Assembly (NCBI GenBank): GCA_041662585.1
Contig: JBAZSG010000003.1
Location: 33,011-97,010, forward strand
Length of the DNA: 64,000 bases
Reading direction: 5' to 3'
From: Patescibacteria group bacterium
GTDB taxonomy: Bacteria > Patescibacteriota > Patescibacteriia > UBA1558 > GWA2-36-10
Below the pieces are notes generated by a model. It did not search any database, was not told the DNA's origin, and saw nothing but the letters and a program-made list of their open reading frames with translations. Position 1 is the first letter of the stretch. Each line of letters starts with the position of its first letter. Below, in pieces: positions 2,036 through 61,241 of the stretch. The translations under genes and the position numbers were made by a program.

Positions 2036-3438
2036 ATATTATGAAAGTAGATAAATATCAAAGAGTATTTGAAAATCAAAATGTAAGGCCATATTATTCT
2101 ATACCTCACAATCAAGGTTTTGGCGAGCCATTAAAAGAATTGGTTAACTATGAATATGATAGAGTAATATACGTGATTTCAGAATCATACGGTAATAAAG
2201 CATATATTCACGAAGATGAAATAAACAAAGGAGCTAATTATTTTTCTAAAATTTGGAAAGATTCAAAAAAGACTAAGGAGATTTTAGCCGAGATAAGAAA
2301 ACGTTTTTTAAATGCCAAAAAACTAGAATTCAATTTATGGAAAATAGATATAATAAATATCAAGGAAGAAAAATTGGTAAGTAAATTAAATAAAATACAA
2401 GACATGTTACTTAATATTTTAAGTGCTCATGTCATTAGCCAGCCACCTCATATAAAAAGTTTGGAAAAGGAGTTAAATAATAGCCTTGAAAAAATAAAAG
2501 ATGTTGATCAATCATTATTAATTAGATCTTTTACACATTTTGAGGGTGTTTTGCCACACGCAGAGGAAGAAAAAGAAATAGAAAAATATAATAAATTATG
2601 GTCAAATATAGACAGCGATAAGAGAGAGACTATATTAGAAGAGTTGGTAAAAAAATATGGTTGGATAAATGCTGTAGAGGGAGATAAACCATATTCTAAA
2701 GAACATTATAAAAATAAAATAGAAACATATAAAAAGTCTTCTGATATAGAATTGTTAGATTTGAGTAAGTATTCTGTACCGCAAGCAGTAAAAATTGGAA
2801 AACTAATTGGTGAATTAGGCTTTTTACGTTTTTGGTCTAGATTTCATATGTTGGCTCTACATTATCAAATGAAACGTATAGTAAAAGAATTAGCCATCAA
2901 AAAAGAAAATAATTTAATAAATTTAATGACCGTAAAAGAAATTACTAATTATATAAATGGAGATGAAATAAATCTTAAAGAGATAGAAAAAAGAAAGAAA
3001 GGTTATGTGGTTTATTTAAAAAATGGAAAAAGTCATTTAGTGTCTGGCCAAGAAACTGATAAATATATTAAACTTACCAAGGAAGATGAATTGTCTCAAA
3101 AACAGATATCTGGATTTGTAGCATGCAGAGGTTTAATAAAAGCTAAAGCTAGAATTATTGATTTTAATTCAAAAGATTATAATAAAGAAGTATCTCAGTT
3201 TAAAAAAGGAGAAATTCTAGTCACAGGTATGACCCGTCCACAAATTGTACATCTATGTAATAAAGCCTCAGCTATTGTAACTGATGAAGGAGGTATAACA
3301 AGCCATGCAGCGGTAGTCAGTAGAGAATTAAATATTCCTTGTGTAATAGGTACTAAAGATGCCACTAAAATTTTTAAAACGGGAGATTTTTTAGAAGTAG
3401 ATGCCAATAAAGGAATAATAACAAAGATTATTAATTAA
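2032..3438 (+). CDS. PEP-utilizing-enzyme mobile domain protein, paralog 3 (unique 380-aa N-terminal region)
   Basis: C-terminus ...AIVTDEGGITSHAAVVSRELNIPCVIGTKDATKIFKTGDFLEVDANKGIITKI. Confidence 0.65.
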   Translation: MNIMKVDKYQRVFENQNVRPYYSIPHNQGFGEPLKELVNYEYDRVIYVISESYGNKAYIHEDEINKGANYFSKIWKDSKKTKEILAEIRKRFLNAKKLEFNLWKIDIINIKEEKLVSKLNKIQDMLLNILSAHVISQPPHIKSLEKELNNSLEKIKDVDQSLLIRSFTHFEGVLPHAEEEKEIEKYNKLWSNIDSDKRETILEELVKKYGWINAVEGDKPYSKEHYKNKIETYKKSSDIELLDLSKYSVPQAVKIGKLIGELGFLRFWSRFHMLALHYQMKRIVKELAIKKENNLINLMTVKEITNYINGDEINLKEIEKRKKGYVVYLKNGKSHLVSGQETDKYIKLTKEDELSQKQISGFVACRGLIKAKARIIDFNSKDYNKEVSQFKKGEILVTGMTRPQIVHLCNKASAIVTDEGGITSHAAVVSRELNIPCVIGTKDATKIFKTGDFLEVDANKGIITKIIN

Positions 3439-7147: not shown

Positions 7148-8502
7148 GTAGAAAGTATGATTTTATGTCAAAACCTTGGGTATATTCTATTTCTAGAAAT
7201 ATACATTTTTGGCACGATGAATTATCTATTAAATATAGTTATGCAGGTTGTAAGAAATTAAAATTACCTTCTTTTCATTATGCTCGGATTAATAATACAG
7301 GTCATGGAGATTTTTTTTATTTAGAAACAGGAGAGTATGGTAAGGATAAATTTAATAAAGCTTTAGAAGATAATTTTAAAGATAAAAAATATATTAATTT
7401 TTTAGAAAATTATTATATCAGTAATGGAGAAAAATTGGTTGAACATTCTAAAAAATTAAAATTAGATTATAAAGAATTTAAAGATTATTTTACAGAATAT
7501 GGAATAATGTGTCCTACTTTAGATGGTACTAACACAGGCAGTAAAATTATTACAGATTATTTATTAAATAAGTTATCTAGCTATCCTGATGCTACTGACA
7601 TTATTTCTTATTACTCTCAAATGCCTAAAAAAAGTCCCATGCAGAAGATGGATGAGGAGTTAGCTAAAGGCATTAAAAATAAAGTAGATAAAAAGAAATT
7701 AGCTAAAACATTATATAATAAGTATTGTTGGATACCAATTAGTTTTATTGGAGATCCTTGGGATTTAAAATATTTTGAAGATAAGATTAAAAAATATAGT
7801 CCAAATAAAGAACATAAATTATCTAAACCAAAAGTTCAAATAGCAGATAATTTAATGTATTACTTAAAATTATTAGGTAAAATAGCTTATTTAAATGAAT
7901 ATAGAAAATCTGTTTTTACTAGAGCCAATTATTATATTAGGCCGTTATTAGAAAAAATTGCTCAGGAGTATAATTTGGGTACTTGGAAAGAAATAAATCT
8001 TTTAGCTAGTAATGAGATATTAGATTTATTAGATGGTAAAGATGATTATCAAAAAAAATTGATAAAAGAGAGAAGAAAGGACTGGTTAATGTATGCGGTT
8101 GGTCGAGAGGGTATTGATTATGTCCATGGAAAGTTGGTAAAAGATTTTAGAAATAAATTTATGCCAAAAGCGAATGGTTTAAATTATGTTTCAGGTACAA
8201 TTGCCAATAAAGGTAAGGTCAGAGGTGTAGTAAAAATTATATATGAACCAAAAGATTTTAATAAGTTTAAGAAAGGGGATATATTAGTAGCTAAGATGAC
8301 CTCTATTGATTTTATACCAATAATGAAGCGTGCGGCAGCTTTTGTTACTAACGAAGGGGGTTTAGCATGTCATGCAGCTATAGTTTCTCGTGAATTAAAC
8401 ATCCCCTGTATAATAGGAGCTAAGATAGCTACCGAAGTTTTTAAAGACGGTGACAGAGTAGAAGTAGATGCTAATAGAGGTATAGTTAAGAAGATAAAAT
8501 AA
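7144..8502 (+). CDS. PEP-utilizing-enzyme mobile domain protein, paralog 4 (unique N-terminal domain)
   Basis: C-terminus ...AAFVTNEGGLACHAAIVSRELNIPCIIGAKIATEVFKDGDRVEVDANRGIVKKIK. Confidence 0.65.
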   Translation: MSRKYDFMSKPWVYSISRNIHFWHDELSIKYSYAGCKKLKLPSFHYARINNTGHGDFFYLETGEYGKDKFNKALEDNFKDKKYINFLENYYISNGEKLVEHSKKLKLDYKEFKDYFTEYGIMCPTLDGTNTGSKIITDYLLNKLSSYPDATDIISYYSQMPKKSPMQKMDEELAKGIKNKVDKKKLAKTLYNKYCWIPISFIGDPWDLKYFEDKIKKYSPNKEHKLSKPKVQIADNLMYYLKLLGKIAYLNEYRKSVFTRANYYIRPLLEKIAQEYNLGTWKEINLLASNEILDLLDGKDDYQKKLIKERRKDWLMYAVGREGIDYVHGKLVKDFRNKFMPKANGLNYVSGTIANKGKVRGVVKIIYEPKDFNKFKKGDILVAKMTSIDFIPIMKRAAAFVTNEGGLACHAAIVSRELNIPCIIGAKIATEVFKDGDRVEVDANRGIVKKIK

Positions 8503-8520
8503 TTTTAGACAAACGGAAAA

Positions 8521-8573
8521 GCGGCGACACGTTGTGTGTGTCGCCGCTTTGTTGTTAGTCCGTTGAGCGGACT
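8521..8573. terminator. pair of GC-rich hairpins (gcggcgacac..gtgtcgccgc and agtccgttgagcggact) acting as a bidirectional terminator
   Basis: Perfect inverted repeats, followed by a T-rich run on either strand. Confidence 0.55.
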
Positions 8574-9147
8574 ACTCTTCAATCCAGACGGCATCGATAC
8601 TGCCGTCGTCGTATAGGCGGAAGCGAATCGCTTCCATGGCATCGAGGCTGTGAGCATCGGTCATGCCGAGACACTTGGCCAGCATGGGGATGGTGGGATC
8701 GTGGAAGATCCCGACACCGTGCTGACCCGAATCCATCAGGTCGAACATCTGCTTGAGAGCATTGCGGGCTCCAATGTTGAAGTCAACGAGTACCTGCCGG
8801 TCGATGTTTACGAGCACGGCCTCCATATTGGAGAGGCCACCCTTGATGTCGGCCCGGACATGGTCGGTGATGATAGTGGCGAACAGTTCGCTACTACCGA
8901 GACCGTGGATCGGGTCATGCATCTTCACATGAGTGAAGGCCTGATTGGCTGTCATCATGGCGATGGCGGTTTCGCAGGTGCGGGCGAGAGGCCCCCAGAA
9001 GAGATGGTGAATATTCATGTTGCCTTCGTCGTAGCGCTCCGAGCCTATTTCGTAGGCGTAGGTGGCTCCGTCATAGGAGACATGATTGCCACCGGTATCT
9101 TTGTGCGTGTGGCGATACAAGTCTACGGTTTTGGTTATCTGGGCCAT
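8572..9147 (-). CDS. GC-rich histidine phosphatase superfamily-like protein (start placed at MAQITK..)
   Basis: Strong GC3 codon periodicity. The SD AGGGAGG lies 6 nt upstream of the ATG at 9147. DLYRHTHKD and later WGPLARTCETA resemble the RHG and S-x-L-x-RA-x-QTA motifs of the PGM/SixA fold. The ORF track's longer start at 9213 has no RBS. Confidence 0.45.
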   Translation of the reverse strand: MAQITKTVDLYRHTHKDTGGNHVSYDGATYAYEIGSERYDEGNMNIHHLFWGPLARTCETAIAMMTANQAFTHVKMHDPIHGLGSSELFATIITDHVRADIKGGLSNMEAVLVNIDRQVLVDFNIGARNALKQMFDLMDSGQHGVGIFHDPTIPMLAKCLGMTDAHSLDAMEAIRFRLYDDGSIDAVWIEE

Positions 9148-9222
9148 TTTGGGCCTCCCTGTTTTGGGTTTTGTATGGTACGCCCCTAAATATAGGGGAT
9201 TCTTGTATTTCAAGAATATATT

Positions 9223-9340: not shown

Positions 9341-11149
9341 ATGTTGGATAAAATTATAAATTCAAAAACTCGTCTAGCTATCTTGTCTTTATTTTTTAAA
9401 AATCAAGACAAAGAATTTTATGCTGGAGAGATTATCAAACAAAGCAATATGGATGCAGCTAATGTCCATAAAGAATTAAAAAATTTGGTAGCTGGTAAAT
9501 TTGTATTGCAAGAAGATAAATCAAGTAGAAAATATTTTTCTTTAAATAAAGATAATATTTTTTATAATGGTTTGGATAAGGTATTTAGTCAATATAAAGT
9601 ATCCATATCTGGAGATGTGTGGTTTTCTTTGGAATCAATGCCAAATTATTATCCTATGGTGGTGGCTTTTACTTGGAATGTAAAACGAGCCAATGATTTT
9701 TTACAAAGCCGTGGCTATAAAAATAAATTTACCAAACTACTCACTACCTATAACAATAATATCAATGATTTGCTTTTGATTAAAAAAGAATTTGACGACT
9801 TATCACAAGAAACTTTAGATAAGATTAATTCTGATCCAGATTGGGGGCATAGATATGTTGATGATTTATCACAAGCCATCCCTAAGTTGGTTAAAGCCAC
9901 TAAAGATTTGGAAAAAGTAAATTTGGGCAAATTATCCAATGAAGAATTATATAATTTATATCAGGAGTATTATGATGCTTATGGACGTCTTCATAGATTT
10001 CACTGGGTACAAACCATCGCTGATTTTGGTGACAATTTGTTTTCTAAATATCTAATGAATTATTTGCGTCATAAGGTCAAAGATAGCCAATATTCTTTGG
10101 GAGAAGTCTTTTCTACTTTGACAACTCCGATAGAAGACGGTCAAGCCGCTAAAGAGTATCAAAATTTATTAGGTATCTTAAAAAATATAATAGCTGATGA
10201 AAATCTAAAACAATATTTTAAAGATACCGAAACTCGTATTATTTACAGAGATTTAAAAAATGTTAATAAGGTTGTTGATGAACAAATTTCTGAACATACT
10301 GGGCTCTATGGTTATCTTGGTTATGGTATGGCCGGCCCTGGTTGGGGTAAAGACTATTTTATTGATATTTTAGGATCTTTGGTCAGACAGAATACCAATC
10401 CTAGTGAATTATTGGATAATTTACAAAAAGACAAAATAAACATTGAAGCCAAACAGCAGAAATTTATTAAACAACTAGAGGTAGATGAAAAACATCAGCA
10501 ATTGTTTGAAGTAGCTAGAGGTTTGGTTTTTACCAAAGGTACTCGCAAGGAATCTATGTTTTACAGTTATAGTGTTATAGAAAATTTGTTTAGAGAAATT
10601 GGTCGCCGTTATTATTTATCGGTCAATCAGGTGAGATATTTTTATCCCCATGAATTTGAAGATTTATTGCTTCACAATAAATTTAGTGCGGCTAAACTAA
10701 ATGAGCGTTATAAATTTAGTTTGCAATATTCAGTAGGTGATTATCATCAAGATAAATTATTAGAAGGTGAAGAAGCTAGAAAATTTTTAGAAAATTTTAA
10801 TATTGTCAAAGAGGAAATCGTTGATATTAAAGTAATGGAAGGAGATTGTGCTTCTCCTGGTCGAGCTCGTGGTAGTGCAAAAATTATCAATATTCCCAAA
10901 GATATGAGTAAAATGGAACAAGGCGATGTGCTTATATCTATCGCCACTACTCCGGATTTAGTACCAGCTATTAAAAAGGCTAGTGCTATTGTCACTGACG
11001 TCGGAGGTATTACTTGTCATGCTGCCATTGTTTCTCGTGAATTGGGCATTCCTTGTGTTATTGGTACTAAAATCGCTACCAAAGCCTTAAAAGATGGTGA
11101 TGTAGTAGATGTAGATGCTACGCATGGTAAAGTTACGATTGTCCGGTAG
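9341..11149 (+). CDS. winged-helix (ArsR/MarR-like) DNA-binding domain fused to a PEP-utilizing-enzyme mobile domain, paralog 5
   Basis: N-terminus KTRLAILSLFFKNQDKEFYAGEIIKQSNMDAANVHKELKNLVAGKFV is a wHTH pattern. C-terminus ...ASAIVTDVGGITCHAAIVSRELGIPCVIGTKIATKALKDGDVVDVDATHGKVTIVR. Confidence 0.6.
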   Translation: MLDKIINSKTRLAILSLFFKNQDKEFYAGEIIKQSNMDAANVHKELKNLVAGKFVLQEDKSSRKYFSLNKDNIFYNGLDKVFSQYKVSISGDVWFSLESMPNYYPMVVAFTWNVKRANDFLQSRGYKNKFTKLLTTYNNNINDLLLIKKEFDDLSQETLDKINSDPDWGHRYVDDLSQAIPKLVKATKDLEKVNLGKLSNEELYNLYQEYYDAYGRLHRFHWVQTIADFGDNLFSKYLMNYLRHKVKDSQYSLGEVFSTLTTPIEDGQAAKEYQNLLGILKNIIADENLKQYFKDTETRIIYRDLKNVNKVVDEQISEHTGLYGYLGYGMAGPGWGKDYFIDILGSLVRQNTNPSELLDNLQKDKINIEAKQQKFIKQLEVDEKHQQLFEVARGLVFTKGTRKESMFYSYSVIENLFREIGRRYYLSVNQVRYFYPHEFEDLLLHNKFSAAKLNERYKFSLQYSVGDYHQDKLLEGEEARKFLENFNIVKEEIVDIKVMEGDCASPGRARGSAKIINIPKDMSKMEQGDVLISIATTPDLVPAIKKASAIVTDVGGITCHAAIVSRELGIPCVIGTKIATKALKDGDVVDVDATHGKVTIVR

Positions 11150-11215: not shown

Positions 11216-12154
11216 ATGGAATTAGTCAGAGATTTTAAAAAAATAGATAAAAATCATGTCGCTTTGGCTGGAGGTAAGGGGGCATCTTTAGGAGAAATGA
11301 CCAAAGCGGGTATTCCTGTACCACCTGGTTTTGTGGTTTTATCTGGAGCTTTTGACAGATTTTTAGAAGAAACAGATTTGAATGTAGAAATAGAAGCTAT
11401 TTTAAAAACAGTTAAACATGAAGATGTTAATTCTGTGGAAAAGTCTTCTTTAAAAATAAGAGATTTAATTGCTGATGCTAAGATGCCAGAGGATATTGCC
11501 AAAGAAATTAAAGTATCTTTTAAAAAGCTTGATGCTAAATATGTAGCTGTGCGTTCTTCTGCTACAGCTGAGGATTCATCTATTGCATCTTGGGCCGGAG
11601 AATTGGAGTCATATCTTAATACCACAGATAAAGATTTGCTTGATAATGTCAAAAAATGTTGGTCATCACTTTTTACACCTCGGGCAATTTTTTATCGTTT
11701 TGAAAAAAAATTACATAACACTAAGGTATCTGTAGCTGTGGTAGTACAAGCAATGGTGCAGTCACAAGTGAGTGGTATTGTTTTTACTGTTCATCCAGTC
11801 ACAGAAGATCAGAAACAGATGATTATTGAAGCTGGTTGGGGATTGGGTGAAGCTATTGTTTCAGGTATGGTTACTCCCGATGCTTATGTTATAGATAAAA
11901 CAGATTTTTCTATTGTGGATATCAATATTTCAGATCAAGCCAAATACATTATCAAAACTAACAAAGGCAACAAATTTACAGATGTGCCTAGTGATAAACG
12001 TGAAGAGCAAAAATTGTCTGGTGCTCAGATTGTAGAGCTAGCCAAAATTTGTGTGGATATTGAAAAACACTACGGCTTTCCTTGTGATATAGAATGGGCT
12101 ATGGAAAAAAATAAATTTTATATTACCCAGTCCAGACCAATCACCACTTTATAA
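11216..12154 (+). CDS. free-standing PEP synthase / pyruvate phosphate dikinase N-terminal ATP-grasp (PPDK_N) domain protein
   Basis: VALAGGKGASLGEMTKAGIPVPPGFVVLSGAF matches the PpsA N-terminus (GGKGANLGEL..GxxVPxGF). Only 312 aa, with no swivel and no PEP-binding domain. Confidence 0.7.
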   Translation: MELVRDFKKIDKNHVALAGGKGASLGEMTKAGIPVPPGFVVLSGAFDRFLEETDLNVEIEAILKTVKHEDVNSVEKSSLKIRDLIADAKMPEDIAKEIKVSFKKLDAKYVAVRSSATAEDSSIASWAGELESYLNTTDKDLLDNVKKCWSSLFTPRAIFYRFEKKLHNTKVSVAVVVQAMVQSQVSGIVFTVHPVTEDQKQMIIEAGWGLGEAIVSGMVTPDAYVIDKTDFSIVDINISDQAKYIIKTNKGNKFTDVPSDKREEQKLSGAQIVELAKICVDIEKHYGFPCDIEWAMEKNKFYITQSRPITTL

Positions 12155-12171
12155 ATTTTATATAAAAGAAA

Positions 12172-12198
12172 AGAGCCCAGTTGTTTAGACAGGGCTCT
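12172..12198. terminator. bidirectional rho-independent terminator hairpin (agagccc..gggctct)
   Basis: The inverted repeat is flanked by an A-run upstream and a T-run downstream. Confidence 0.55.
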
Positions 12199-12221
12199 TT
12201 TAAATTCGCGGTGTTGGCGAA

Positions 12222-12719
12222 TTATACCTCGGTTTCGCCGAGTTGGTCGAGAATCGACCAGCCGATTTCACCGTTTTCGTCGATGGTGATCTCGATGACT
12301 GAGCCGCTTTTGGCGGCTTCTATACCCAGAGACTTGGCAAATGGTCTGCCGGTGCATAGCACAGCCCCATCGGGCAGAGACTCCAGGAAAGCAGGAATGG
12401 CGGGCGCCATATCAGCGATGCCGGTGTAGGCATCATAGGCACAGTGGTTGCCGTCGGCAAAGACGATGGTCGGCTGACCATCGATCATGTCGAGCGACGT
12501 GGCGTCACCCAGAAGCAGAGTTGAGCGGGTCATGGTCAGACCCAGTGTGGCAGCAACGTGCCGATGTCGGCGACCAGTGCCGCATATTACAGCCGCAGGA
12601 TTTTCAGGGAGGAGTCCCTTGAGGGACTCAATCTGATTTACTCCTTTGAGAGTCATCAGGGGGTCAGCCCCATCGCTCTTGTCGCCGTGCAATACGGCGA
12701 AAAATTGATTGACTTTCAC
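12222..12719 (-). CDS. GC-rich SixA-like (phosphohistidine phosphatase-type) histidine phosphatase family protein, GTG start
   Basis: GC3-rich codons. FFAVLHGDKSDGADPLMTLKG ... VICGTGRRHRHVAATLGL has the same layout as SixA (IMRHGDA...RPLT.NG ... VLVSPFLRAEQT), but with L in place of the catalytic R. Confidence 0.4.
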   Translation of the reverse strand: MKVNQFFAVLHGDKSDGADPLMTLKGVNQIESLKGLLPENPAAVICGTGRRHRHVAATLGLTMTRSTLLLGDATSLDMIDGQPTIVFADGNHCAYDAYTGIADMAPAIPAFLESLPDGAVLCTGRPFAKSLGIEAAKSGSVIEITIDENGEIGWSILDQLGETEV

Positions 12720-12766
12720 TTTTTAGCCTTTCTTTTGGGTTGTAGGGTACTTGATTTTAATATAAT

Positions 12767-12795
12767 ATTATAGCATATTTTTATACTTTTGTCAA
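12767..12795 (-). promoter_or_regulatory. sigma70-like promoter TTGACA-N17-(TGc)TATAAT for 12222..12719
   Basis: The reverse complement reads ttgacaaaagtataaaaatatgctataat. Confidence 0.5.
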
Positions 12796-12845
12796 TGATA
12801 GTATTTTTTTAAAAATAATTATTTTGAGGTGGTGTTTTATTGCTA

Positions 12846-12874
12846 TTGACAATAATCACTATATATGCTAATAT
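12846..12874 (+). promoter_or_regulatory. consensus sigma70 promoter TTGACA-N17-TAATAT
   Basis: ttgacaataatcactatatatgctaatat. It drives the GC-rich transcript that ends at the 13286-13319 terminator. Confidence 0.5.
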
Positions 12875-13027
12875 ACAAAATACTTTGATTTTGTAGTGTC
12901 TATCGCTTGTATAAGCAAGGACACTCAAGTCAGGGTAGTATCATTACAATCAAAAAAGGTTGCGACCAAAAGTTGGTTGCAACCAAACAAACACTGAAGT
13001 TGGCCAAGCAGGCCAAGGAGGTTCTTG

Positions 13028-13120
13028 ATGCGTACCTACAAGAAGCATCACTCGCCCCCGTCCGTGGTTTTTACGAATATTATCACCAAAAAGGCGAAGA
13101 AGACCGCCACGACGAGCTGA
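13028..13120 (+). CDS. small ORF MRTYKKHHSPPSVVFTNIITKKAKKTATTS with a perfect SD
   Basis: AAGGAGG lies 6 nt upstream of the ATG. The track's alternative 12907..13167 ORF starts with TTG inside the hairpins and lacks an RBS. Confidence 0.3.
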   Translation: MRTYKKHHSPPSVVFTNIITKKAKKTATTS

Positions 13121-13285
13121 CCGAGATCCGGCCGGCGGTCGTGATTCTGATGAGTATCAGAAAATAAGCTCAATCAGACAACGACCTGCCGAACGAACGA
13201 ACATCAAAAAACTGAATTCGCCGGCGCAAGCCGTACAAAAATGACGGCGATTTGCCGACGATTCAGCAGTGCTCTTCTGTGTATG

Positions 13286-13319
13286 CCGCCCCACCTAGCT
13301 AGGTCGGGGCGGTTTTTTA
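13286..13319 (+). terminator. strong rho-independent terminator (ccgccccacctag/ctaggtcggggcgg + T7)
   Basis: A 12-13-bp GC stem followed directly by TTTTTTATT. Confidence 0.7.
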
Positions 13320-13394
13320 TTGACATTTTTTCTTAAAATTGTTCAAATATTGGGTAGATTTTTTATAAATAATGTGTTAAAATAAGTACATAAT

Positions 13395-13754
13395 ATGTCT
13401 ATAATTCGCACCAGCAAAGTATTATATAAAGATAAATTAGCTTTTTGGCTAATTAATTTTTCTTTTTTGTCTATATTAGCCACTTGGTTTTTATTTTTTA
13501 TTAAAAGAATCAAATATGATCCTTTGGCTGTACTACATTACAATATTTACTCGGGGATTGATATTTTGGGTGCTTGGTACATACTTTTTATTATTCCGGT
13601 TTTAGTTTTAATTGTATCATTTTTAGATTTCTTTTTAGCGGTATTACTTTGGACTAAAGTAAGGGTCATGAGTTATTTTTTATTGCTTACTATTTTACTT
13701 ATAAATGTTTTTATGTTTTTATTTTTATATAATATATTAAATTACAATTTATAA
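13395..13754 (+). CDS. small integral membrane protein (3 predicted TM segments), unknown function
   Basis: Highly hydrophobic 119-aa ORF immediately upstream of mraY. Confidence 0.4.
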   Translation: MSIIRTSKVLYKDKLAFWLINFSFLSILATWFLFFIKRIKYDPLAVLHYNIYSGIDILGAWYILFIIPVLVLIVSFLDFFLAVLLWTKVRVMSYFLLLTILLINVFMFLFLYNILNYNL

Positions 13755-32416: not shown

Positions 32417-33224
32417 TATGGATTTATCAATTGTAATTTTAAATTATAAAACAAAAAATTTGGCCAAAGAATTATTAAAAAATTTGGCGGAATTAAATTT
32501 GCCATATCAGCATGAGATTATCGTAGTAGATAATGCATCTTATGATGGTCTCAAGGAAATAGTAACTGAAAAATTTCCACAAGTGAAGTTTGTTCAAAGT
32601 GACAAAAATGGTGGTTTTGCAGCTGGTAATAATATTGGCATAAGATTGGCCATGGGCAAATATATTATGATAATGAATCCAGATTTGGCCGTTTTATCAA
32701 AGGCCATACCGATTCTTTATGATTATATGGAAGTCAATCCTAGTGTTGGTTTGGCTGGTCCAAGACTTATAAATGCTGATAAGAGTGTGCAAGCGTCTTG
32801 TACAAATTGGCCAGATTGGAAATTGCCTTTTTATAGACGTACATCACTTGGCAATACCAAGGCTGGACAAAAATGGTTGGATAAATACACAATGAAAGAA
32901 CTAGATCATTACAAAAATAGCTATGTACCAACTTTGTTTGGTGCTTGTCTTATTTTTAGAAAAGCAGCAATAGAAAAAGTAGGCTTATTGGATGAAAGGT
33001 ATTTTATGTATTTTGAAGATTTGGATTGGTCTAGGCGTTTTTGGGAAAACGGCTTTAAGGTGTCTTATGTTGGTCAAGCTGAGATAATTCATTTGCATCG
33101 TCGTCAATCAGCCGCTGAAAACATTATGAAATCTTTATTGGATAGAACAGCCCGTTTTCATATTATTAGTTTTATTAAGTATTTATTAAAATTTAGAGGC
33201 AAAAAATTGCCAGAGATTAAATAG
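32382..33224 (+). CDS. glycosyltransferase family 2
   Basis: LSIVILNYKT...IIVVDNASYDG. Confidence 0.7.
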   Translation: MLMIYTNGLKNNMDLSIVILNYKTKNLAKELLKNLAELNLPYQHEIIVVDNASYDGLKEIVTEKFPQVKFVQSDKNGGFAAGNNIGIRLAMGKYIMIMNPDLAVLSKAIPILYDYMEVNPSVGLAGPRLINADKSVQASCTNWPDWKLPFYRRTSLGNTKAGQKWLDKYTMKELDHYKNSYVPTLFGACLIFRKAAIEKVGLLDERYFMYFEDLDWSRRFWENGFKVSYVGQAEIIHLHRRQSAAENIMKSLLDRTARFHIISFIKYLLKFRGKKLPEIK

Positions 33225-54107: not shown

Positions 54108-54974
54108 ATGCGTACACGTAATTTCAGTTTTTTGGCGATGGCTTTCGTAGCCATCATGCTCACTGTCGTTTCTACTCAGGCTAAGGTGGTCCTCACGCCG
54201 ACCACAGTTGACTCTGTCGGAGTCGAAAGAGTCGGAGACAGCACCTTGCTCAAGGTGCCGGCGACAATAGAGGTCTACGATTCCTTATTTGTTGACAGCG
54301 TCAACACTTATCGAATCAATGATTTGGTTGAAGCTATTAAGCAAGTCGATTCGACTTTCGATGGTAGCGAAGCCGCCGTCAAGGCTCGCATCACACAGCG
54401 CGAAGCTCGGGCCAAGGCCGAGGCCGACAGTCTGGCAGCTGCTGAAGCCGCCGAATTGAAGAAGCTTCACAAGCAGTGGAGCAAAGAAGTGAAACCGCTG
54501 TCGTATGACAGCGTCTGGGTATGGGCTTTGATTCCTGATAACGATACCGCTTATATGAAAGCGGAATGGTTGGCCGAGCGTTATAGCTTGACACTGAGTC
54601 AAGCTGACATCTACAACCTTGATTCGAAAGAGATCATTGAAGAGCTCAAAGCTCAACTTCGGCAGCGACAGAAAATCAATGCCACAGTCGATACTCGCAT
54701 CGCCAAATCAATCGCTGGACTGCAAAGTCAGCTCAACGCTTTGAGCGATACCCTGTCTCAGACCCGGGCCGGCGTGGAGCTCGCATACAAGTTGGCGGAT
54801 GAAGCCAATTGCAAGGCCGAGGCCAATACGGCCGAAATATCAAGGCTCTGGAGCGTTTGGGAAGCGCTCGAAGTACAGGACAGTGTTTCCACTGTCCCTA
54901 ACCCCGAGACCACCACACCTCCCCCCGCTCCCGACTCTTCCAATGCATCTTTGGTCAAAAACGACGGCAAATAA
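54108..54974 (+). CDS. GC-rich secreted protein (signal peptide, central coiled coil, Pro/Thr-rich C-terminus), unknown function
   Basis: MRTRNFSFLAMAFVAIMLTVVSTQA signal peptide. Codon GC3 bias and GC content are sharply different from the flanks. SD GGAAGGGG. Confidence 0.5.
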   Translation: MRTRNFSFLAMAFVAIMLTVVSTQAKVVLTPTTVDSVGVERVGDSTLLKVPATIEVYDSLFVDSVNTYRINDLVEAIKQVDSTFDGSEAAVKARITQREARAKAEADSLAAAEAAELKKLHKQWSKEVKPLSYDSVWVWALIPDNDTAYMKAEWLAERYSLTLSQADIYNLDSKEIIEELKAQLRQRQKINATVDTRIAKSIAGLQSQLNALSDTLSQTRAGVELAYKLADEANCKAEANTAEISRLWSVWEALEVQDSVSTVPNPETTTPPPAPDSSNASLVKNDGK

Positions 54975-55091: not shown

Positions 55092-58000
55092 TTATTTGGC
55101 TAATTGTTTATCTATTTTGGATATAATATTAGCATTTTCTTCAACAGCTTTGTTTATTTTATCAAGCGAAAAATTTGAATTGTTTGGAGGACCCTCTTTT
55201 AAGATTGTTTGCATTTTTGCCAATTCTGTTTTTAAATTCTGTAATTCAGTATGGTCCATCTGATCAAATTCACTGGTGGAAACTAATTCTTTATTGTAAA
55301 AGCCTTTGTACAATTCATTCATCGTAATGCTATTAATTTCAGCTACAGGAGTTTCTTCGTCAGGACTTAAGGCATAATCTTCAATATTATCAAGTTGGTC
55401 GTCAGTTGACATTTCATTGGTACTTGGTGGAAGCTGATCTATTTCTTCACCTTGAGCTTCTAGTTGTTTTACTAAGTCAGTGATTCTCTCCAATCTTTCT
55501 TGCTCAGTGCCTTCATTACTAATATTATATTTTTCAAACAAATCAGCTCTTTCAGTCAATACATTGTTGGCTAGACCAATGGCTATTTCTTCATAATCTG
55601 GCCGGCTAGTGTCAATATCAGGATTCCAAGATTTTAATAGTTCCATAGCTGTTTCTGGCTTAATATTGGAAACATTTTCTATTTCAGGATTTATTGTAGT
55701 TTCTGGCATAGCTTTTTCTACAACAGCCGCTTCTTCATCGTTTGCTACTGTTTCAGCTTTTGAAGAGTTTTTTTCCATGTTGTTTACTTTGATTTCAGCT
55801 ACATCCATATCATGGCGTAATTTTTCTATAGTATTTTTTGTAGCCAATTCTTTGATAGCTTCCTCTATAGTTATGGATTTGTCATGAACATCACCTTTAT
55901 TGATAGCCTCTTGAATAAATTCTTGCATGTGACTTCTATGGTGTCTTTCTAGTAGCTGGTTATTTTGTTCAGAATAACCTTCTATTTTTTCATCTAGTAA
56001 ATCAGAGACACTTTCTTTTTTAAGAAAATCCCACTCAGCTTTACCATAGTCATCAACAAAACCAAGCTTGGTTAGAGTAGTTTCTAGCTCGGTATTAATA
56101 TCATATTCTGGAGTAGCCAATGCCGGAATATTTTCTATTATTTTTTGTGATTCAAAATTGGCTAGCTGTGTATTTAATCGTTCTGTCATCTCAGCCTTAG
56201 TATCTTCTATTAGTGATAAAAGTTTTTCAGCTTTTACTTCAGAAACTCTGTCAATCAATTCTTCACCAGCTTCTTTATTGTTCAAAATAATTGGATTCTC
56301 TAGATTTGTGTCACCTACTCTGACTACCTCATTGTCTTTAATCAGGATTTCTTCATTATCAATCACAAAAGTGCCAGAATCTTCATCTTTAAATGCTAGG
56401 TCAGTAGCTAGTTCACCGAGCTCAGTATTATTTAAGGTAGCTTGAAACAATCTATTTTCAGCGGCATCTATTTGTTGTTGATCTAGCTTTATCTGTTCGG
56501 CAGCTATATTTTCTGGTTTGAGCATGTCACCCCAAGTTGCATCTTTGATATTGTCAATATAGGCTACTGCCCCTGAATTTTCAATATTTTCTGTAGTAAT
56601 AGTTTCTTCAGCATGAGCGACTAAAACGCGGACAATATTGTCTTGAAAACCATCATAATCATTTACCACTACCTTACCATTTTCAACAGAAACATATTTT
56701 TGAAAATCTTCGGCACTAATACCAGCGATATCATGACCTTCAGACAATTTTGTCATGTTGGCTCCAATATTTAATATTTGAGCTGCTTCTACATTGGTGA
56801 TTTCGTCGCCAAAATGCATACTATCAATACCTACTCGATAAAATACTTGCTCTAGATGTTTTGGGGCACCATCTTTAGCAAGCTCCAAAGATAAATTACG
56901 TTTTATGGATTCTCCAGTTTTGGTTTCTGGTTCATCTTTTTCAATTTCTTTAAATCCAGTATGCTTTATAGATGCGTGTTCAATGGAAAATTTTTGTTCA
57001 TCGTTTATGAGACCAGATTGGTACAATTTTTCAAGCAAAGCAGTAGCTTCTCCAGCTTTGGCTCCGTGTATTTGCTCAGCAATTTTATTTAATTCTTCGC
57101 TTGTAATATCTCCATCAAATGAGTTGATACCAAACTCTTTTTCAAGCTCCAATCTGTCTTGAACTTCTATGACAGTTTTGATATCAATTTGACTGTTTTC
57201 AATGGCATTTTTAGCTATTTCTTCATTACTAAGGTTTAATTCTTGACCAACATGCGTTGCTATTGCTTGTTTGTATTGTTCCAAGGTCAAAGTACCATCA
57301 TCTAATAAATGATTTAAAGCGTGACGAGCATTGATTGCTTCTTGAGATTTTGGGTCATTGTCTAATTCACAAACCACCTTATCCAAATCTTCAATCGTTA
57401 CTCCTTTTTCAAAGATATTTATTATTTTTTCAACTTCTGGATTGATTGTTTCTTCGGTTTTTTGTTCATTAGTGGTATCTGGCTGAGTCGTTTGCGTAGT
57501 ATCTATATGTTCAAGATTATTCCAATCTGGAGGTGAAGATTTTTGATTTTCTAATTTATAAAATAGCTTACTTTCTTCATTTGCAGTTTCGTGTATTGGA
57601 TTTTTAATTTCAGGAGATTGTGTTGTAGTATCTGACTGATTAGTTTCAGTATTTTGTGTTGTATCTGAAGTAATTATTTTTTCTTCAAGTTCTTCTTTGG
57701 TTTCTGAAACTGGTTTTGGTATTTCTACATGAGAAGTATTAGTAGTTGCTGTGTCTTGATTTTCGTCAGCGTCAGTAACAATATTTTTAATATCTTCTAC
57801 TATTGTTTCTGTACGAGCTGCAGCAGCTCCTGCATTTAAAGTAACCCTATTAAGTACATTATCAAGACCGGCATTTATATCATAGCTTCCTCCATTCATA
57901 GTTGTGCTACCAAAACTAACCAATTCACTACCAATGGCACCAGCCAAAGCTCCTTTTGCTCCTTCGTAGCCAGCTTTAGCAAAAACTTTGAGTTTTTCTT

Positions 58001-61000
58001 CGCGACTTAAGTTCCAAAAAGCTTTTGATAAACCTATCAAACTTTTTCTTTTTCTTTCTTTCTCAGCAATATCGGCAGCTTCAGCTATTTGCATTGCTCT
58101 AGCTCCTACTATCTTTTGAGCAAAATCATCTTTTTCCATAGCATCATCCATTCCAGCAAGCTGTGCCTCTTGTATCATTTTGACTTCCAAAGCATCAATT
58201 TTTAATTCAATTTTGGCTCTTTCAGTTTCTTTGATATCAGGTAATTTTATTCTAGCTCTAGCTTCATGAATCAATGTTTCAGCTTGAGCAAAAGTATCTG
58301 TAGTTAATTCAAATTGCTCAAATTCACCAAGAATTTCTCTGGTAGTTTTGACTTCGCTTTTACTTTTGGCAAGTATTTCAGACCTCAGAGAACCAAGCAT
58401 TCTTTGAGAACCCATGTAAGCAGCGCCTATTAAAACATCAGTATTAGCAGTTCCAGCGATGGCACCAGAAGTAAAACCTTTGGCCAAGGCCTGCATAAAG
58501 CTTTCTGGTGGAGTTGTACCAAATATTTTTGATACATAAGACATTCCATATGAGCTTTTGGCTTTATCATCAATTTCATCAAACTTTTCTTGAGCCACTA
58601 CATCACCTAAAATGACATTCATTTCACGAGCTACCATCAAATGTGCTCTGGTTATTAATTCTTTTTTTCCATCTTCATTTAATACTTCACCATCTTTTAG
58701 TGTTTCTAGTGTCTTTTCTATTTGATAGGAAACATATTCTTCAAGGGCATTATTTTCACTAAGATTTTTTATTAACTCTTGTCTTTTTTTTATCTTATCT
58801 TTTTTCAAAGAACCTTCATTCTCTCTAGCACTTTGTGTTATTCTAAGTAACTCCTGGATTGCTTCAAGCTTGGCTTTTTTTTCTTCAAAGTTTTCTCCAC
58901 TAAATGTCCTATTTATGGCTTCATCATTAAATGACAATTCATAAGATTTAGCACTCTGTATTTTTAATTTTTCTTTTTGACTGATATCAAATTCAATCAA
59001 ATCAGACATATCACTTTTTAATTGAGCAAATAGATCTGTTTCACTAAGTCCCTTGTCTGTCAATTTTTCAGCTTTTTTTGCCAAATTTTTCATACCCTTG
59101 GCATTGAATTTTTCAAAGCCTTTACCAAGTGCGTAATTTAAACCAGATGAAAAAGCACCAGCAGCTCCACCAACAGCCATTTTTATAAACAAAGCAGAAC
59201 TACTCATTGTTTTTGCTACCAGCATAGTACCCTTCATAATTATTGCATATTGAGCACCACCTAGTATTCCTTTGGCAAATTTTTTGCCTTCTTTTTTTAG
59301 AGTAGATTCAGGATCTTTATTGGCTGCAATATGTTCTTGCATGATTACTTCTGATTGTAAACAAAAATTTTCAAAGTATTTGTTGATAGCATCTTGCTTA
59401 TAAAGCTCACTAATGTGCATTTCTTGCAATAATTCATCTGTCATCATAGCATTAAATTTTTCTTTTAATGCGTCAATATCTTTTAAGTCTTCTAAAGTCA
59501 AATTTGCAAAAAATTCATTAAATTCTTTGCTTTTAATTCTTTCTGCCTGATTATCTATTTTAAATAATTCAGCTATCTTATCACGAAATCCAGCTGATCT
59601 TGTAGCCACATCCAAAGTTTCTTCCCCACTTTGTATTTTAGTAATAACATTTTTTAATATTTCTGGTGTAAAAAGTTGTTCTGATCCTTGAATAGATATA
59701 TTTTCGCTATCTATTATAGCTATAAGTTCTTCCAAAGATTTGGCGTTTTCAATCAATGCTCTAGCTTTTTCCTCTTCCATTATTGCTTCAGGCTTTGTTT
59801 CAGCTGCAGGAGTTTCTTCAATCTTTTGTGTATCTTCTGTTTTTGGTGTTTCTTCAGGTGCTGGTATTTCAAAAGTTTCTGATGTTTCTTCAAGCAATTT
59901 TTCGGTAGGTCTTTTTGTATTTAAAATTGCTGATAAGGGGTATATAACTTCTCTGTATCTTGCAATTTCTTTTTCTGAAGATGCTTTTTCTTCCCCAGTT
60001 TTTTCTTTTGGTTTACCATAAGTATCATTGTTATCATCAGGTTCATAAGAATAGTCTAATTCACCATTTAGATTGTTAACAAAATAAGTTAAAACAGCCT
60101 CCATTTCTTGGAAATTGCCAGATTCCAATTGTTTTATTTGAGTATTAACTTGTTTTTCCATTGCTTGATAAAAATCTAGAGCACCTTCTTTATATGGTTC
60201 TTTACTTTTTAAAATATCTTTTAAGAGGTTAACGCCTTTTTGTATTATTTCCTGATCTGTCTGTTCACTTTCTGTTGGAGTTTCGATAAGAGGTCTTTTT
60301 GTATTTAAAATTGCTGATAAGGGGTATATAACTTCTCTGTATCTTGCAATTTCTTTTTCTGAAGATGCTTTTTCTTCAGGATTGTAAGAGTAATGCAATT
60401 CATTATCTAAGTTGTTAATAAAATAAGTTAAAACAGCTTCCATTTCATTAAAATCATCAGACTCTAGTTGTTTGATTAGAGTATTGATTTCTCTTTCCCT
60501 TTCTTTATAAAAATTTGGGTCTTGTTCTTTATATTGCTCTGCACTTTTTAAAATATCTTTTAAGAGGTCAACACCTTTTTGTATTATTTCTTGATCTGTT
60601 TTCTCAACTTCAATATTTTCAGAGCTTGTTTCAACTACTGGTGTTTTTAGAACATCTGGTGTCTCGGGTATTTCAGGGGTTTCTGGAGTTTTTTCGTCAG
60701 GTGTTATATTTTCTAAAACTGGCTCTGAATTTTTTTGGGTTTTTGTTTTCAAGTATCCTCCTTTTTTTCTTTTACTTTGTTCAACAAAACCATCAACTAA
60801 ATCCTCAACTAACCTATCGGTAGCTGGTATTTTTGATTTATTGGGTATTTTTGGTACTGTAAGTGGAGTTTGATAATCAACATTTTCAGAATCAATAACT
60901 TGTCCAGAAGCTGGCTCATAGTGGTGGTGGTCAGTAACTTTTTTAGAACTTCTACCATATGTCATAGCAACTTCACCTATAGCTTTTTTAGCTTCCATAG

Positions 61001-61241
61001 CAGCTATTTCAGCACCTTGATTGATGTTGTCTAGAGCAATTTTTTCTGTATCATCAAGCCCAGATTTAATATCTTCGGGTAATTGTTTTAAATTAAGAAT
61101 TTCATCATCAATATTTTGAGTTGTTTCTGTGACAACTGTTTCTAAACTAGGAATAGTTTTTTCATCTTCATAATTTCCTGATAGAAGTTCTCTTAACTCG
61201 TCATCTGGTAATAGACCAGTCTTTATTTTTTTTCTAGTCAT
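55092..61241 (-). CDS. giant (2049 aa) acidic repeat-containing protein, unknown function
   Basis: Single uninterrupted ORF. There is an internal ~120-aa tandem repeat (DQEIIQKGV(D/N)LLKDILKS...EKASSEKEIARYREVIYPLSAILNTKRP) with an 88-nt stretch identical at 59907-59994 and 60293-60380. Gly/Ala-rich hydrophobic segments occur mid-protein. Confidence 0.65.
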   Translation of the reverse strand: MTRKKIKTGLLPDDELRELLSGNYEDEKTIPSLETVVTETTQNIDDEILNLKQLPEDIKSGLDDTEKIALDNINQGAEIAAMEAKKAIGEVAMTYGRSSKKVTDHHHYEPASGQVIDSENVDYQTPLTVPKIPNKSKIPATDRLVEDLVDGFVEQSKRKKGGYLKTKTQKNSEPVLENITPDEKTPETPEIPETPDVLKTPVVETSSENIEVEKTDQEIIQKGVDLLKDILKSAEQYKEQDPNFYKEREREINTLIKQLESDDFNEMEAVLTYFINNLDNELHYSYNPEEKASSEKEIARYREVIYPLSAILNTKRPLIETPTESEQTDQEIIQKGVNLLKDILKSKEPYKEGALDFYQAMEKQVNTQIKQLESGNFQEMEAVLTYFVNNLNGELDYSYEPDDNNDTYGKPKEKTGEEKASSEKEIARYREVIYPLSAILNTKRPTEKLLEETSETFEIPAPEETPKTEDTQKIEETPAAETKPEAIMEEEKARALIENAKSLEELIAIIDSENISIQGSEQLFTPEILKNVITKIQSGEETLDVATRSAGFRDKIAELFKIDNQAERIKSKEFNEFFANLTLEDLKDIDALKEKFNAMMTDELLQEMHISELYKQDAINKYFENFCLQSEVIMQEHIAANKDPESTLKKEGKKFAKGILGGAQYAIIMKGTMLVAKTMSSSALFIKMAVGGAAGAFSSGLNYALGKGFEKFNAKGMKNLAKKAEKLTDKGLSETDLFAQLKSDMSDLIEFDISQKEKLKIQSAKSYELSFNDEAINRTFSGENFEEKKAKLEAIQELLRITQSARENEGSLKKDKIKKRQELIKNLSENNALEEYVSYQIEKTLETLKDGEVLNEDGKKELITRAHLMVAREMNVILGDVVAQEKFDEIDDKAKSSYGMSYVSKIFGTTPPESFMQALAKGFTSGAIAGTANTDVLIGAAYMGSQRMLGSLRSEILAKSKSEVKTTREILGEFEQFELTTDTFAQAETLIHEARARIKLPDIKETERAKIELKIDALEVKMIQEAQLAGMDDAMEKDDFAQKIVGARAMQIAEAADIAEKERKRKSLIGLSKAFWNLSREEKLKVFAKAGYEGAKGALAGAIGSELVSFGSTTMNGGSYDINAGLDNVLNRVTLNAGAAAARTETIVEDIKNIVTDADENQDTATTNTSHVEIPKPVSETKEELEEKIITSDTTQNTETNQSDTTTQSPEIKNPIHETANEESKLFYKLENQKSSPPDWNNLEHIDTTQTTQPDTTNEQKTEETINPEVEKIINIFEKGVTIEDLDKVVCELDNDPKSQEAINARHALNHLLDDGTLTLEQYKQAIATHVGQELNLSNEEIAKNAIENSQIDIKTVIEVQDRLELEKEFGINSFDGDITSEELNKIAEQIHGAKAGEATALLEKLYQSGLINDEQKFSIEHASIKHTGFKEIEKDEPETKTGESIKRNLSLELAKDGAPKHLEQVFYRVGIDSMHFGDEITNVEAAQILNIGANMTKLSEGHDIAGISAEDFQKYVSVENGKVVVNDYDGFQDNIVRVLVAHAEETITTENIENSGAVAYIDNIKDATWGDMLKPENIAAEQIKLDQQQIDAAENRLFQATLNNTELGELATDLAFKDEDSGTFVIDNEEILIKDNEVVRVGDTNLENPIILNNKEAGEELIDRVSEVKAEKLLSLIEDTKAEMTERLNTQLANFESQKIIENIPALATPEYDINTELETTLTKLGFVDDYGKAEWDFLKKESVSDLLDEKIEGYSEQNNQLLERHHRSHMQEFIQEAINKGDVHDKSITIEEAIKELATKNTIEKLRHDMDVAEIKVNNMEKNSSKAETVANDEEAAVVEKAMPETTINPEIENVSNIKPETAMELLKSWNPDIDTSRPDYEEIAIGLANNVLTERADLFEKYNISNEGTEQERLERITDLVKQLEAQGEEIDQLPPSTNEMSTDDQLDNIEDYALSPDEETPVAEINSITMNELYKGFYNKELVSTSEFDQMDHTELQNLKTELAKMQTILKEGPPNNSNFSLDKINKAVEENANIISKIDKQLAK

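Follow-up and report, generated by a model that had tools for sequence, protein, structure and literature searches.

Does a short, hairpin-dense, GC-rich patch in an AT-rich genome mark an RNA gene or a very small protein-coding gene? The question is raised by a candidate element at positions 12881-13319 of a 64,000-nt window (the whole stretch of DNA that we analyzed, positions 33,011 to 97,010 of contig JBAZSG010000003.1). The same sequence is part of a 702-kb contig, ERZ27249449, from an uncultured member of Candidatus Komeilibacteria, which belong to the Candidate Phyla Radiation (CPR). The window is about 30% GC, and four patches in it are sharply GC rich; the candidate is one of them, and the other three are protein-coding genes (Table 1). 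The original prediction, made from the letters of the sequence, was that the candidate is a novel structured RNA.

Our answer is that the candidate is probably the messenger RNA, about 430 nt long, of a very small orphan gene, and that it forms a lineage-specific accessory cassette like the other GC-rich islands; we would put the probability of this at roughly 0.55. We favor an island-type gene because of its codon usage, its architecture, a gene call by the JGI pipeline, the variable slot in which it lies, and the lack of a match to any RNA family. The most likely product is a helical peptide of 55-64 amino acids. Parts of the original prediction survive: the candidate seems to be a separate unit, it belongs to no known RNA family, and its first hairpin is conserved. 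However, the argument from folding does not hold in this genome, and the codon signal favors coding.

A predicted separate transcription unit

The promoter and the terminator that were proposed to enclose the candidate are both present (Table 1). The promoter matches the consensus at 10 of 12 positions, has the additional TG, and predicts a transcription start at about 12880-12882. The terminator hairpin has a predicted folding energy of -22.1 kcal/mol, or z = -4.1, where z compares the minimum free energy with that of dinucleotide shuffles (here and below). Judged by these consensus matches, the candidate is an independent promoter-to-terminator unit, and we infer that it is transcribed. It is flanked by a divergently transcribed gene for a 165-aa protein, whose promoter is a perfect TTGACA-17-TATAAT, and by a conserved operon that encodes a 119-aa membrane protein, MraY, MurD, FtsW, and MurG.

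Table 1. Features of the candidate and the other GC-rich patches, numbered within the window
Feature	Positions	Strand	Description
Sigma-70-type promoter	12846-12874	+	-35 box TTGACA; spacer of 17 nt with TGC at its end (extended -10); -10 box TAATAT
H1	12881-12937	+	5'-terminal stem-loop, ~23 bp; -22.2 kcal/mol, z = -4.3
H2	12958-12984	+	12-bp hairpin of GGUUGCGACCAA / UUGGUUGCAACC, 3-nt loop
Long-frame open reading frame (ORF)	13000-13167	+	Island-type codon usage; 55 aa from TTG 13000 or 64 aa from TTG 12973; TAA at 13165-13167
Small ORF (sORF) led by a Shine-Dalgarno (SD) sequence	13015-13120	+	AAGGAGG 13015-13021, 6 nt, ATG 13028; 30-codon basic ORF MRTYKKHHSPPSVVFTNIITKKAKKTATTS
H5	13212-13266	+	Long irregular hairpin in the 3' untranslated part; -25.0 kcal/mol, z = -4.4
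Intrinsic terminator	13285-13318	+	12-bp stem with one bulged C and a 4-nt loop (hairpin 13285-13313); U6 tail
GC-rich patch	8505-9150	-	192-aa ORF (8572-9150)
GC-rich patch	12222-12719	-	165-aa ORF
GC-rich patch	54108-54974	+	288-aa secreted coiled-coil ORF

A coding signal in one frame

Within the unit, one frame (the long frame) has the codon usage of the GC-rich islands. Its GC content by codon position is 0.63/0.31/0.57 (over 12973-13167), and the ranges for the island genes are 0.55-0.63, 0.37-0.45, and 0.58-0.72. Neither H1 nor the sequence after the stop codon shows a 3-base periodicity in GC. We also scored codon usage with a log-likelihood ratio that was trained on the three island genes; in leave-one-out tests, this ratio cleanly separates their own frames. 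The long frame scores +0.18 per codon, and in-frame windows of the island genes average 0.18, while the region's two remaining stop-free frames have scores of -0.31 and -0.33. Chance stop-free runs of at least 64 codons in shuffled sequences score -0.157 ± 0.092, and just 0.03% of them reach the value for the long frame. When divided into windows of 30 codons, the long frame scores 0.17-0.25, and stop-free off-frame windows reach these values 1-7% of the time. The cumulative codon trace, flat over H1 and H2, climbs between about 12997 and about 13160 and levels off past the TAA.

The JGI gene caller predicts a 64-aa protein at this place (P0008), beginning at TTG 12973. A longer version of the frame, with 86 codons from TTG 12907, had been offered as a test: its conservation would favor a protein. 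The portion of this frame from about 13000 to 13167 is supported by island codon usage and periodicity. The TTG-12907 start is refuted, because it lies inside the selected hairpin H1 (see below) and because the frame is not kept in the related lineage L011, where the aligned frame differs in length by 1 nt and contains a stop. Tryptic peptides within the 55/64-aa product would include GFYEYYHQK and HDELTEIRPAVVILMSIR.

Several observations weigh against a coding explanation. First, the codon model was trained on only about 645 codons. Second, stop-free runs of at least 64 codons occur in 92% of shuffled sequences, so the length of the ORF carries no weight, and we rejected it as evidence. Third, the gene calls from ENA and Logan, or two of the three pipelines, leave the region empty. 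Fourth, searches of 1.84 billion cluster representatives and of a collection of 5.8 billion sequences gave no homologue: the 86-aa query returned only the candidate's own JGI call (P0008). Fifth, AlphaFold2 run without an alignment gave a low-confidence model with three helices (predicted local distance difference test score of 63), which we set aside as evidence. Sixth, the 439-nt RNA as a whole has z = -7.9 (-7.5 for the first 119 nt, or 5' part; -4.3 for the ORF part; and -2.8 for the 3' part), so the unit folds beyond its shuffles, ORF part included, as a functional RNA would. Finally, the long frame has neither an ATG nor an SD sequence, as its only possible starts are TTG 12973, TTG 13000, and CTG 12994, and the sole strong start signal, AAGGAGG-6-ATG, falls in a different frame.

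Other searches with the ORF were also negative. There was no match for it in Pfam, PHROGs, PADLOC, NCBIfam, or the PDB; a tblastn-type scan of viral sequences with the 64-aa ORF gave nothing; and tblastx of the core of the element against 42 related loci and against the window was likewise negative.

The start-site conflict

The strong start signal belongs to the sORF, which is offset by +1 from the long ORF, so that a ribosome that begins at ATG 13028 needs a -1 shift to reach the long frame. The stem TTGGC/GCCAA that was described as abutting AAGGAGG, ahead of a 30-aa ORF, is found as TTGGCC at 13000-13005 and GGCCAA at 13011-13016 (H3). The region of H3, the SD sequence, and the start folds within chance (z = -1.0). 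ATG 13028 sits in a 6-bp stem, and the SD sequence itself is largely unpaired. The sORF scores +0.12 per codon, a value that 11% of stop-free off-frame windows from the island genes also reach.

How do other genes in the window begin? An SD-like motif precedes just 2 of the 53 ORFs of at least 150 aa, and many have a TATAAT-like -10 box directly before the ATG, which suggests that initiation of the native genes is mostly leaderless or SD independent. With only 2 of 53 carrying one, native genes normally lack an SD sequence. The window shows no enrichment of AAGGAGG (9 occurrences versus 6.2 ± 2.9 expected), and three of the nine are inside paralogous coding sequences. The island genes do carry SD-like G-runs: the 192-aa gene has AGGGAGG-6-ATG, the 288-aa gene has AGGAAGGGG-7-ATG, and the 165-aa gene has GAAAGG; the SD-ATG of the candidate therefore fits the style of the islands, and 13015-13030 is possibly its present or ancestral start site. 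The simplest reconciliation is that the long frame may be translated from TTG 13000 without an SD sequence, or else that an island-type gene lost its phase by a 1-nt deletion. A programmed -1 shift from the sORF into the long frame at C-AAA-AAG (13087-13093) is conceivable but unsupported.

A decaying gene of this kind has to be weighed as an alternative in its own right. The small gene would once have begun at the SD-ATG and been read in what is now the long frame; loss of 1 nt, for instance, from the run of five C's at 13055-13059, would have inactivated it, and the transcribed relic would be on its way to being lost, as in the related lineages L005 and L015. This would reconcile a perfect SD-ATG in one frame with island codon usage one base behind, and it would suit a cassette that is dispensable and has been deleted in relatives. 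A hybrid path through the two frames scores +10.2, and the long frame alone scores +6.85 over the same 46 codons, although these are hand-summed values whose difference is not significant. However, the unit retains an intact promoter, H1, and terminator; three independent samples share an identical sequence; scores for the long frame are positive upstream of the ATG as well (12997-13023); and an indel cannot be dated or proven from one sequence. We consider a relic rather improbable. Returning to a small gene of the island type, either a 1-nt frameshift and a decaying gene, or the 30-aa peptide as the present product, would possibly account for the conflict.

Folding in the GC-rich islands

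Does dense folding mark an RNA gene? Searching for GC-rich islands is a screening principle for noncoding RNAs in AT-rich hyperthermophiles, and the candidate is likewise a GC-rich patch against an AT-rich background. The difference is that the patches in this genome are protein-coding genes, so the principle yields false positives. The coding sequence of the adjacent 165-aa gene has z = -6.5; the other GC-rich islands have z = -2.8 and -3.6, as compared to -1.3 for an AT-rich control gene. Perfect stems of at least 6 bp number 11, 7, and 18 in the island coding sequences versus about 1-2 in their shuffles, and 3 versus 0.85 in the candidate. Because the neighboring coding islands are equally or more hairpin dense, the folding excess is not diagnostic: in this genome, structure does not discriminate an RNA gene from a coding island. 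This removes the step from a GC-rich island with dense stems to a structured RNA, on which the original prediction had relied. Some of the hairpins in island coding sequences are kept in homologues, occasionally with changes that look compensatory (TGGTCGA..TCGACCA becomes TGTTCGA..TCGAACA in L005), and others are broken.

The coding islands are 55-60% GC in a genome of 30% GC. All three are equipped with near-consensus promoters, SD-like G-runs, and terminators, and their products are all orphans or narrowly distributed. The architecture that the islands have in common is a consensus promoter, hairpins in the 5' untranslated region (UTR) (as in the 192-aa gene), an SD-like G-run, a GC-rich and hairpin-dense body, and a terminator. 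The candidate resembles the other island genes in GC content (0.5-0.6 in a 0.30 genome), codon usage, hairpin excess, and narrow distribution. It differs in its short ORF (30-64 aa instead of 165-288 aa), in a long 5' UTR of about 120-147 nt, in a start signal that is out of phase with the coding frame, and in the lack of a homologue even in sister lineages.

Conservation of the 5'-terminal hairpin

To compare loci, we fetched relatives via homologues of the flanking 165-aa and 119-aa genes; we refer to these loci by L numbers. Among the fetched loci, only L011 and L016 (from reads SRR33375177 and SRR33375183) carry the element, as its promoter and H1. A three-way alignment with the candidate shows conservation of the -35 box, the TGn, the 17-nt spacing, and the distance from the promoter to H1. 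Across the three lineages, 97% of the cells of H1 are paired, and slid controls give 28-49%; three pairs are changed on both sides and eight are changed on one side. This pattern of substitutions indicates that H1 is a selected RNA structure at the extreme 5' end of the predicted transcript. The covariation that a structured RNA should show is thus present for H1, from three sequences, while the other ~380 nt are represented by a single sequence variant. The Logan contigs of L016 and L011 end at H1 and 26 nt beyond it, respectively, which could reflect low coverage, strain variation, or repeats downstream.

H1 begins within 1-2 nt of the predicted transcription start. The nested stems that were reported near its center are located at 12896-12900 and 12920-12924 (GTGTC/GACAC) and, inside these, at 12906-12909 and 12916-12919 (CTTG/CAAG). 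Several U.G pairs make H1 specific to the plus strand. A long-range stem reported at about 13214-13266 also exists, as H5 (13212-13266; Table 1).

The two 10-bp near-palindromes that were read as operator-like are GGTTGCGACC (12958-12967) and GGTTGCAACC (12975-12984), and they are indeed 7 nt apart. However, a simpler explanation than an operator is that they are the two halves of one RNA hairpin, H2, on the plus strand. There, H2 has one G.U pair and folds at -18.7 kcal/mol (z = -6.1); on the minus strand, it has an A.C mismatch and folds at -14.5 kcal/mol. We rejected a DNA operator, as the palindromes, at +78 to +104 of the transcript, form a hairpin that contains a G.U pair, and GGTTGCNACC without a mismatch occurs only here in the window. 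H2 may be missing from L011 (as judged by eye from a short alignment of low complexity). On the minus strand, H2 (12952-12995) is followed by UUUUUU, which resembles an intrinsic terminator that points at the cassette's own promoter. We did not find a minus-strand promoter or gene for it to serve, and a promoter scan of 13000-13400 found no minus-strand promoter.

If the candidate is a small gene, its expression can be outlined as follows. A strong promoter would fire at about 12881, and the transcript would open with H1, which, by analogy with known leaders, might protect the RNA from decay that depends on the 5' end. H2 would come next, then a short coding region from about 13000 to 13167, and then a structured 3' UTR containing H5, before the unit closes at the predicted intrinsic terminator. 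Stem-loops at the 5' end are known to stabilize mRNAs, as in the 5' UTR of ompA from Escherichia coli and the leaders of aprE and ermC from Bacillus subtilis. H1 is similar in that it is a stable hairpin close to the predicted start and in that what different lineages have conserved is the pairing and not the sequence. It differs in being long (about 23 bp) and in being followed by a second strong hairpin. Translation and the start codon are, like transcription, inferred.

Distribution among relatives

The core of the element (about 12940-13285) is known in one variant, and this copy is 100% identical over 675 nt in three independent samples. The relatives L015 (82% identical) and L005/L020 (78% identical) do without the cassette: they keep only TAGGTCGGGGCGG(T)CTTTTTTT, which is the 3' arm of the terminator and its T-run. 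Because half of the terminator remains in L005 and L015, the alignment indicates that the cassette was deleted in these lineages. At greater distances, the slot is occupied by unrelated sequence or by other genes. The syntenic relatives include lineages that lost the cassette and lineages in which it was never present. The slot, which lies between PPDK_N and the operon of the 119-aa protein, MraY, and MurD, is variable, and relatives carry other accessory genes there or nothing; on this comparison, the cassette is accessory. The last two contigs that we examined for an orthologue (P0020 and P0021) are from other lineages and lack the element. L034 and L035 have islands of up to about 0.7 GC at this position, ahead of the 119-aa gene.

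Searches for the element beyond these loci found little. Apart from these copies, neither the core nor a part of it turned up in any collection searched, and a blastn search in "distant" mode against phages and plasmids gave nothing. An exact-pattern scan for the conserved core of H1 had no matches in any of three collections (metagenome, genome, and viral). When a covariance model built on H1 was run over the window and 34 loci, the only matches were its own three training sequences. A pattern scan for H2 in viral contigs had three matches, in unrelated GC-rich phages, which is about the number expected by chance given a guessed size for the collection.

Nor does the candidate match a known RNA, in agreement with the original prediction that it has no signature of tRNA, tmRNA, RNase P, or SRP RNA. 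Across the whole window, Rfam 15 (which includes RNase P, SRP, 6S, tmRNA, riboswitches, and leaders) gave no matches at the gathering thresholds, and ARAGORN found no tRNA or tmRNA genes. With E values of up to 10, Rfam gave only terminator-like noise: the best scores in 12100-13500 were 10-23 bits, versus thresholds of 50-114. One of these weak matches, of the terminator type, is on the minus strand at H2 (ncr1241, 20.8 bits versus a threshold of 60). A housekeeping RNA (RNase P, SRP, or 6S) was rejected on the lack of an Rfam match and the absence of the element from syntenic relatives.

Alternative explanations

The alternative that survives best, though we regard it as unlikely, is a lineage-specific small RNA of about 430 nt, noncoding or with a dual function. 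Its hairpins would be the functional parts, single-stranded linkers or loops rich in C and A would engage targets, and the sORF would either be incidental or provide a second function. Such an RNA would be expected to form an independent promoter-to-terminator unit, and it would account for the folding excess of the whole and of its first 119 nt, for the conservation of H1 with compensatory changes, and for the U.G and G.U pairs that tie H1 and H2 to the plus strand. It also agrees with the two pipelines that call no gene and with the lack of a protein homologue. However, the neighboring coding islands match or exceed the candidate in folding and in hairpin counts, and the codon usage and 3-base periodicity are confined exactly to the interval from about 13000 to the stop codon. 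Furthermore, Rfam has no match, close relatives do without the cassette, and covariation was seen for H1 alone. Known RNAs such as SgrS/SgrT, RNAIII/hld, and SR1/SR1P are similar in being structured stand-alone transcripts of a few hundred nucleotides with an SD-led small ORF inside. They differ in that none matches the candidate by sequence or structure (in Rfam), and conservation in the candidate was seen for the 5' hairpin alone. We consider it decidedly improbable that the element is a functional structured RNA (about 430 nt, with a regulatory or dual function) that is restricted to its lineage and has the SD-led sORF embedded in it.

A module like a type I toxin-antitoxin system would combine a folded, stable mRNA, whose SD sequence and start are held in structure and which encodes a small toxic peptide, with an antisense RNA that ends at the minus-strand H2 and controls it. 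The small ORF with its strong SD sequence in a highly structured stand-alone transcript, the start codon in its 6-bp stem, the terminator-like minus strand of H2 with its U6 (antisense to the 5' region), and the patchy distribution among relatives are what one would expect. In its compact fold, small ORF, and patchy distribution, the candidate is reminiscent of hok/sok-like type I mRNAs. However, neither peptide has a transmembrane or hydrophobic segment, the scan of 13000-13400 gave no antisense promoter, and there is no family match in PADLOC, Pfam, or PHROGs. Also, the SD sequence is largely unpaired, and the H3/SD region folds no better than chance. We find such a module highly improbable.

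The least credible proposal is that the candidate controls the downstream cell-wall operon (119-aa protein, MraY, and MurD), either as a cis-acting leader or attenuator or as a DNA operator: it does lie directly upstream, with a short ORF ahead of its terminator and two 10-bp palindromes that could bind a protein, but the operon has its own promoter block between the terminator and its ATG, conserved in all relatives, those palindromes fold as an RNA hairpin with GGTTGCNACC unique in the window, and synteny largely refutes a leader of this division and cell wall (dcw) operon, which occurs without the element in most relatives.

Other features of the window

Upstream of the operon for the 119-aa protein and MraY, a promoter-like block is conserved across Komeilibacteria (13311-13394 of the window; also L005, L015, L017, L028, L029, L035, L037, and L041). 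It consists of (T)TTGAC(A/T)TTTTT..TGTTGAAATA.., then GGTAGATTTTTT..TG(T/G/C)TAAAAT, and then the ATG. The distance from the block to the ATG is about 12 nt in most loci, and a few (L041/L042 and L010) have a longer insert. This arrangement suggests that the operon has tandem promoters and a very short leader.

Homologues of the 165-aa neighbor are confined to Candidatus Komeilibacteria and related Patescibacteria, and in related genomes these genes remain GC rich (0.52-0.62). The protein matches no Pfam model. Its predicted fold is like that of histidine phosphatases and phosphoglycerate mutases (predicted template modeling score of 0.77; Foldseek against TTHB049, 2p9z, E = 1.5e-7). In place of the usual RHG motif, it has LHG, of which the Leu and the His are invariant in the family and the Gly is not. 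The 192-aa island protein resembles this family by eye only (YRHTHK...GPLARTCETA).

Two other sets of repeats were seen. First, five paralogous genes share a C-terminal mobile domain of phosphoenolpyruvate (PEP)-utilizing enzymes, with DNA identity of 68-75% (838-1019, 1851-2032, 3248-3429, 8315-8496, and 10962-11143). Separate genes with PPDK_N only are also in the window, so the PEP-utilizer family is expanded and split. Second, a 2049-aa ORF on the minus strand (55092-61241) has an internal tandem duplication at 59907-60611: an 87-nt segment is repeated with 100% identity 384 nt apart, and the adjoining 242-nt segment is repeated at 78% identity 339 nt apart.

Implications

If the candidate is the mRNA of a very small gene, it adds one more orphan small gene to a variable slot of a CPR genome. 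It also carries a caution, as the GC-rich, hairpin-dense islands in this genome are protein-coding cassettes and not RNA genes. The broader, and perhaps more interesting, lead is a set of accessory genes that are GC rich, bear SD sequences, and are rich in hairpins, in a genome of 30% GC whose native genes almost never use an SD sequence. Together with the other islands of this type, the candidate could represent a distinct class of "foreign-style" expression cassettes in an AT-rich CPR genome, and the island pattern bears on both gene acquisition and translation initiation in CPR bacteria.

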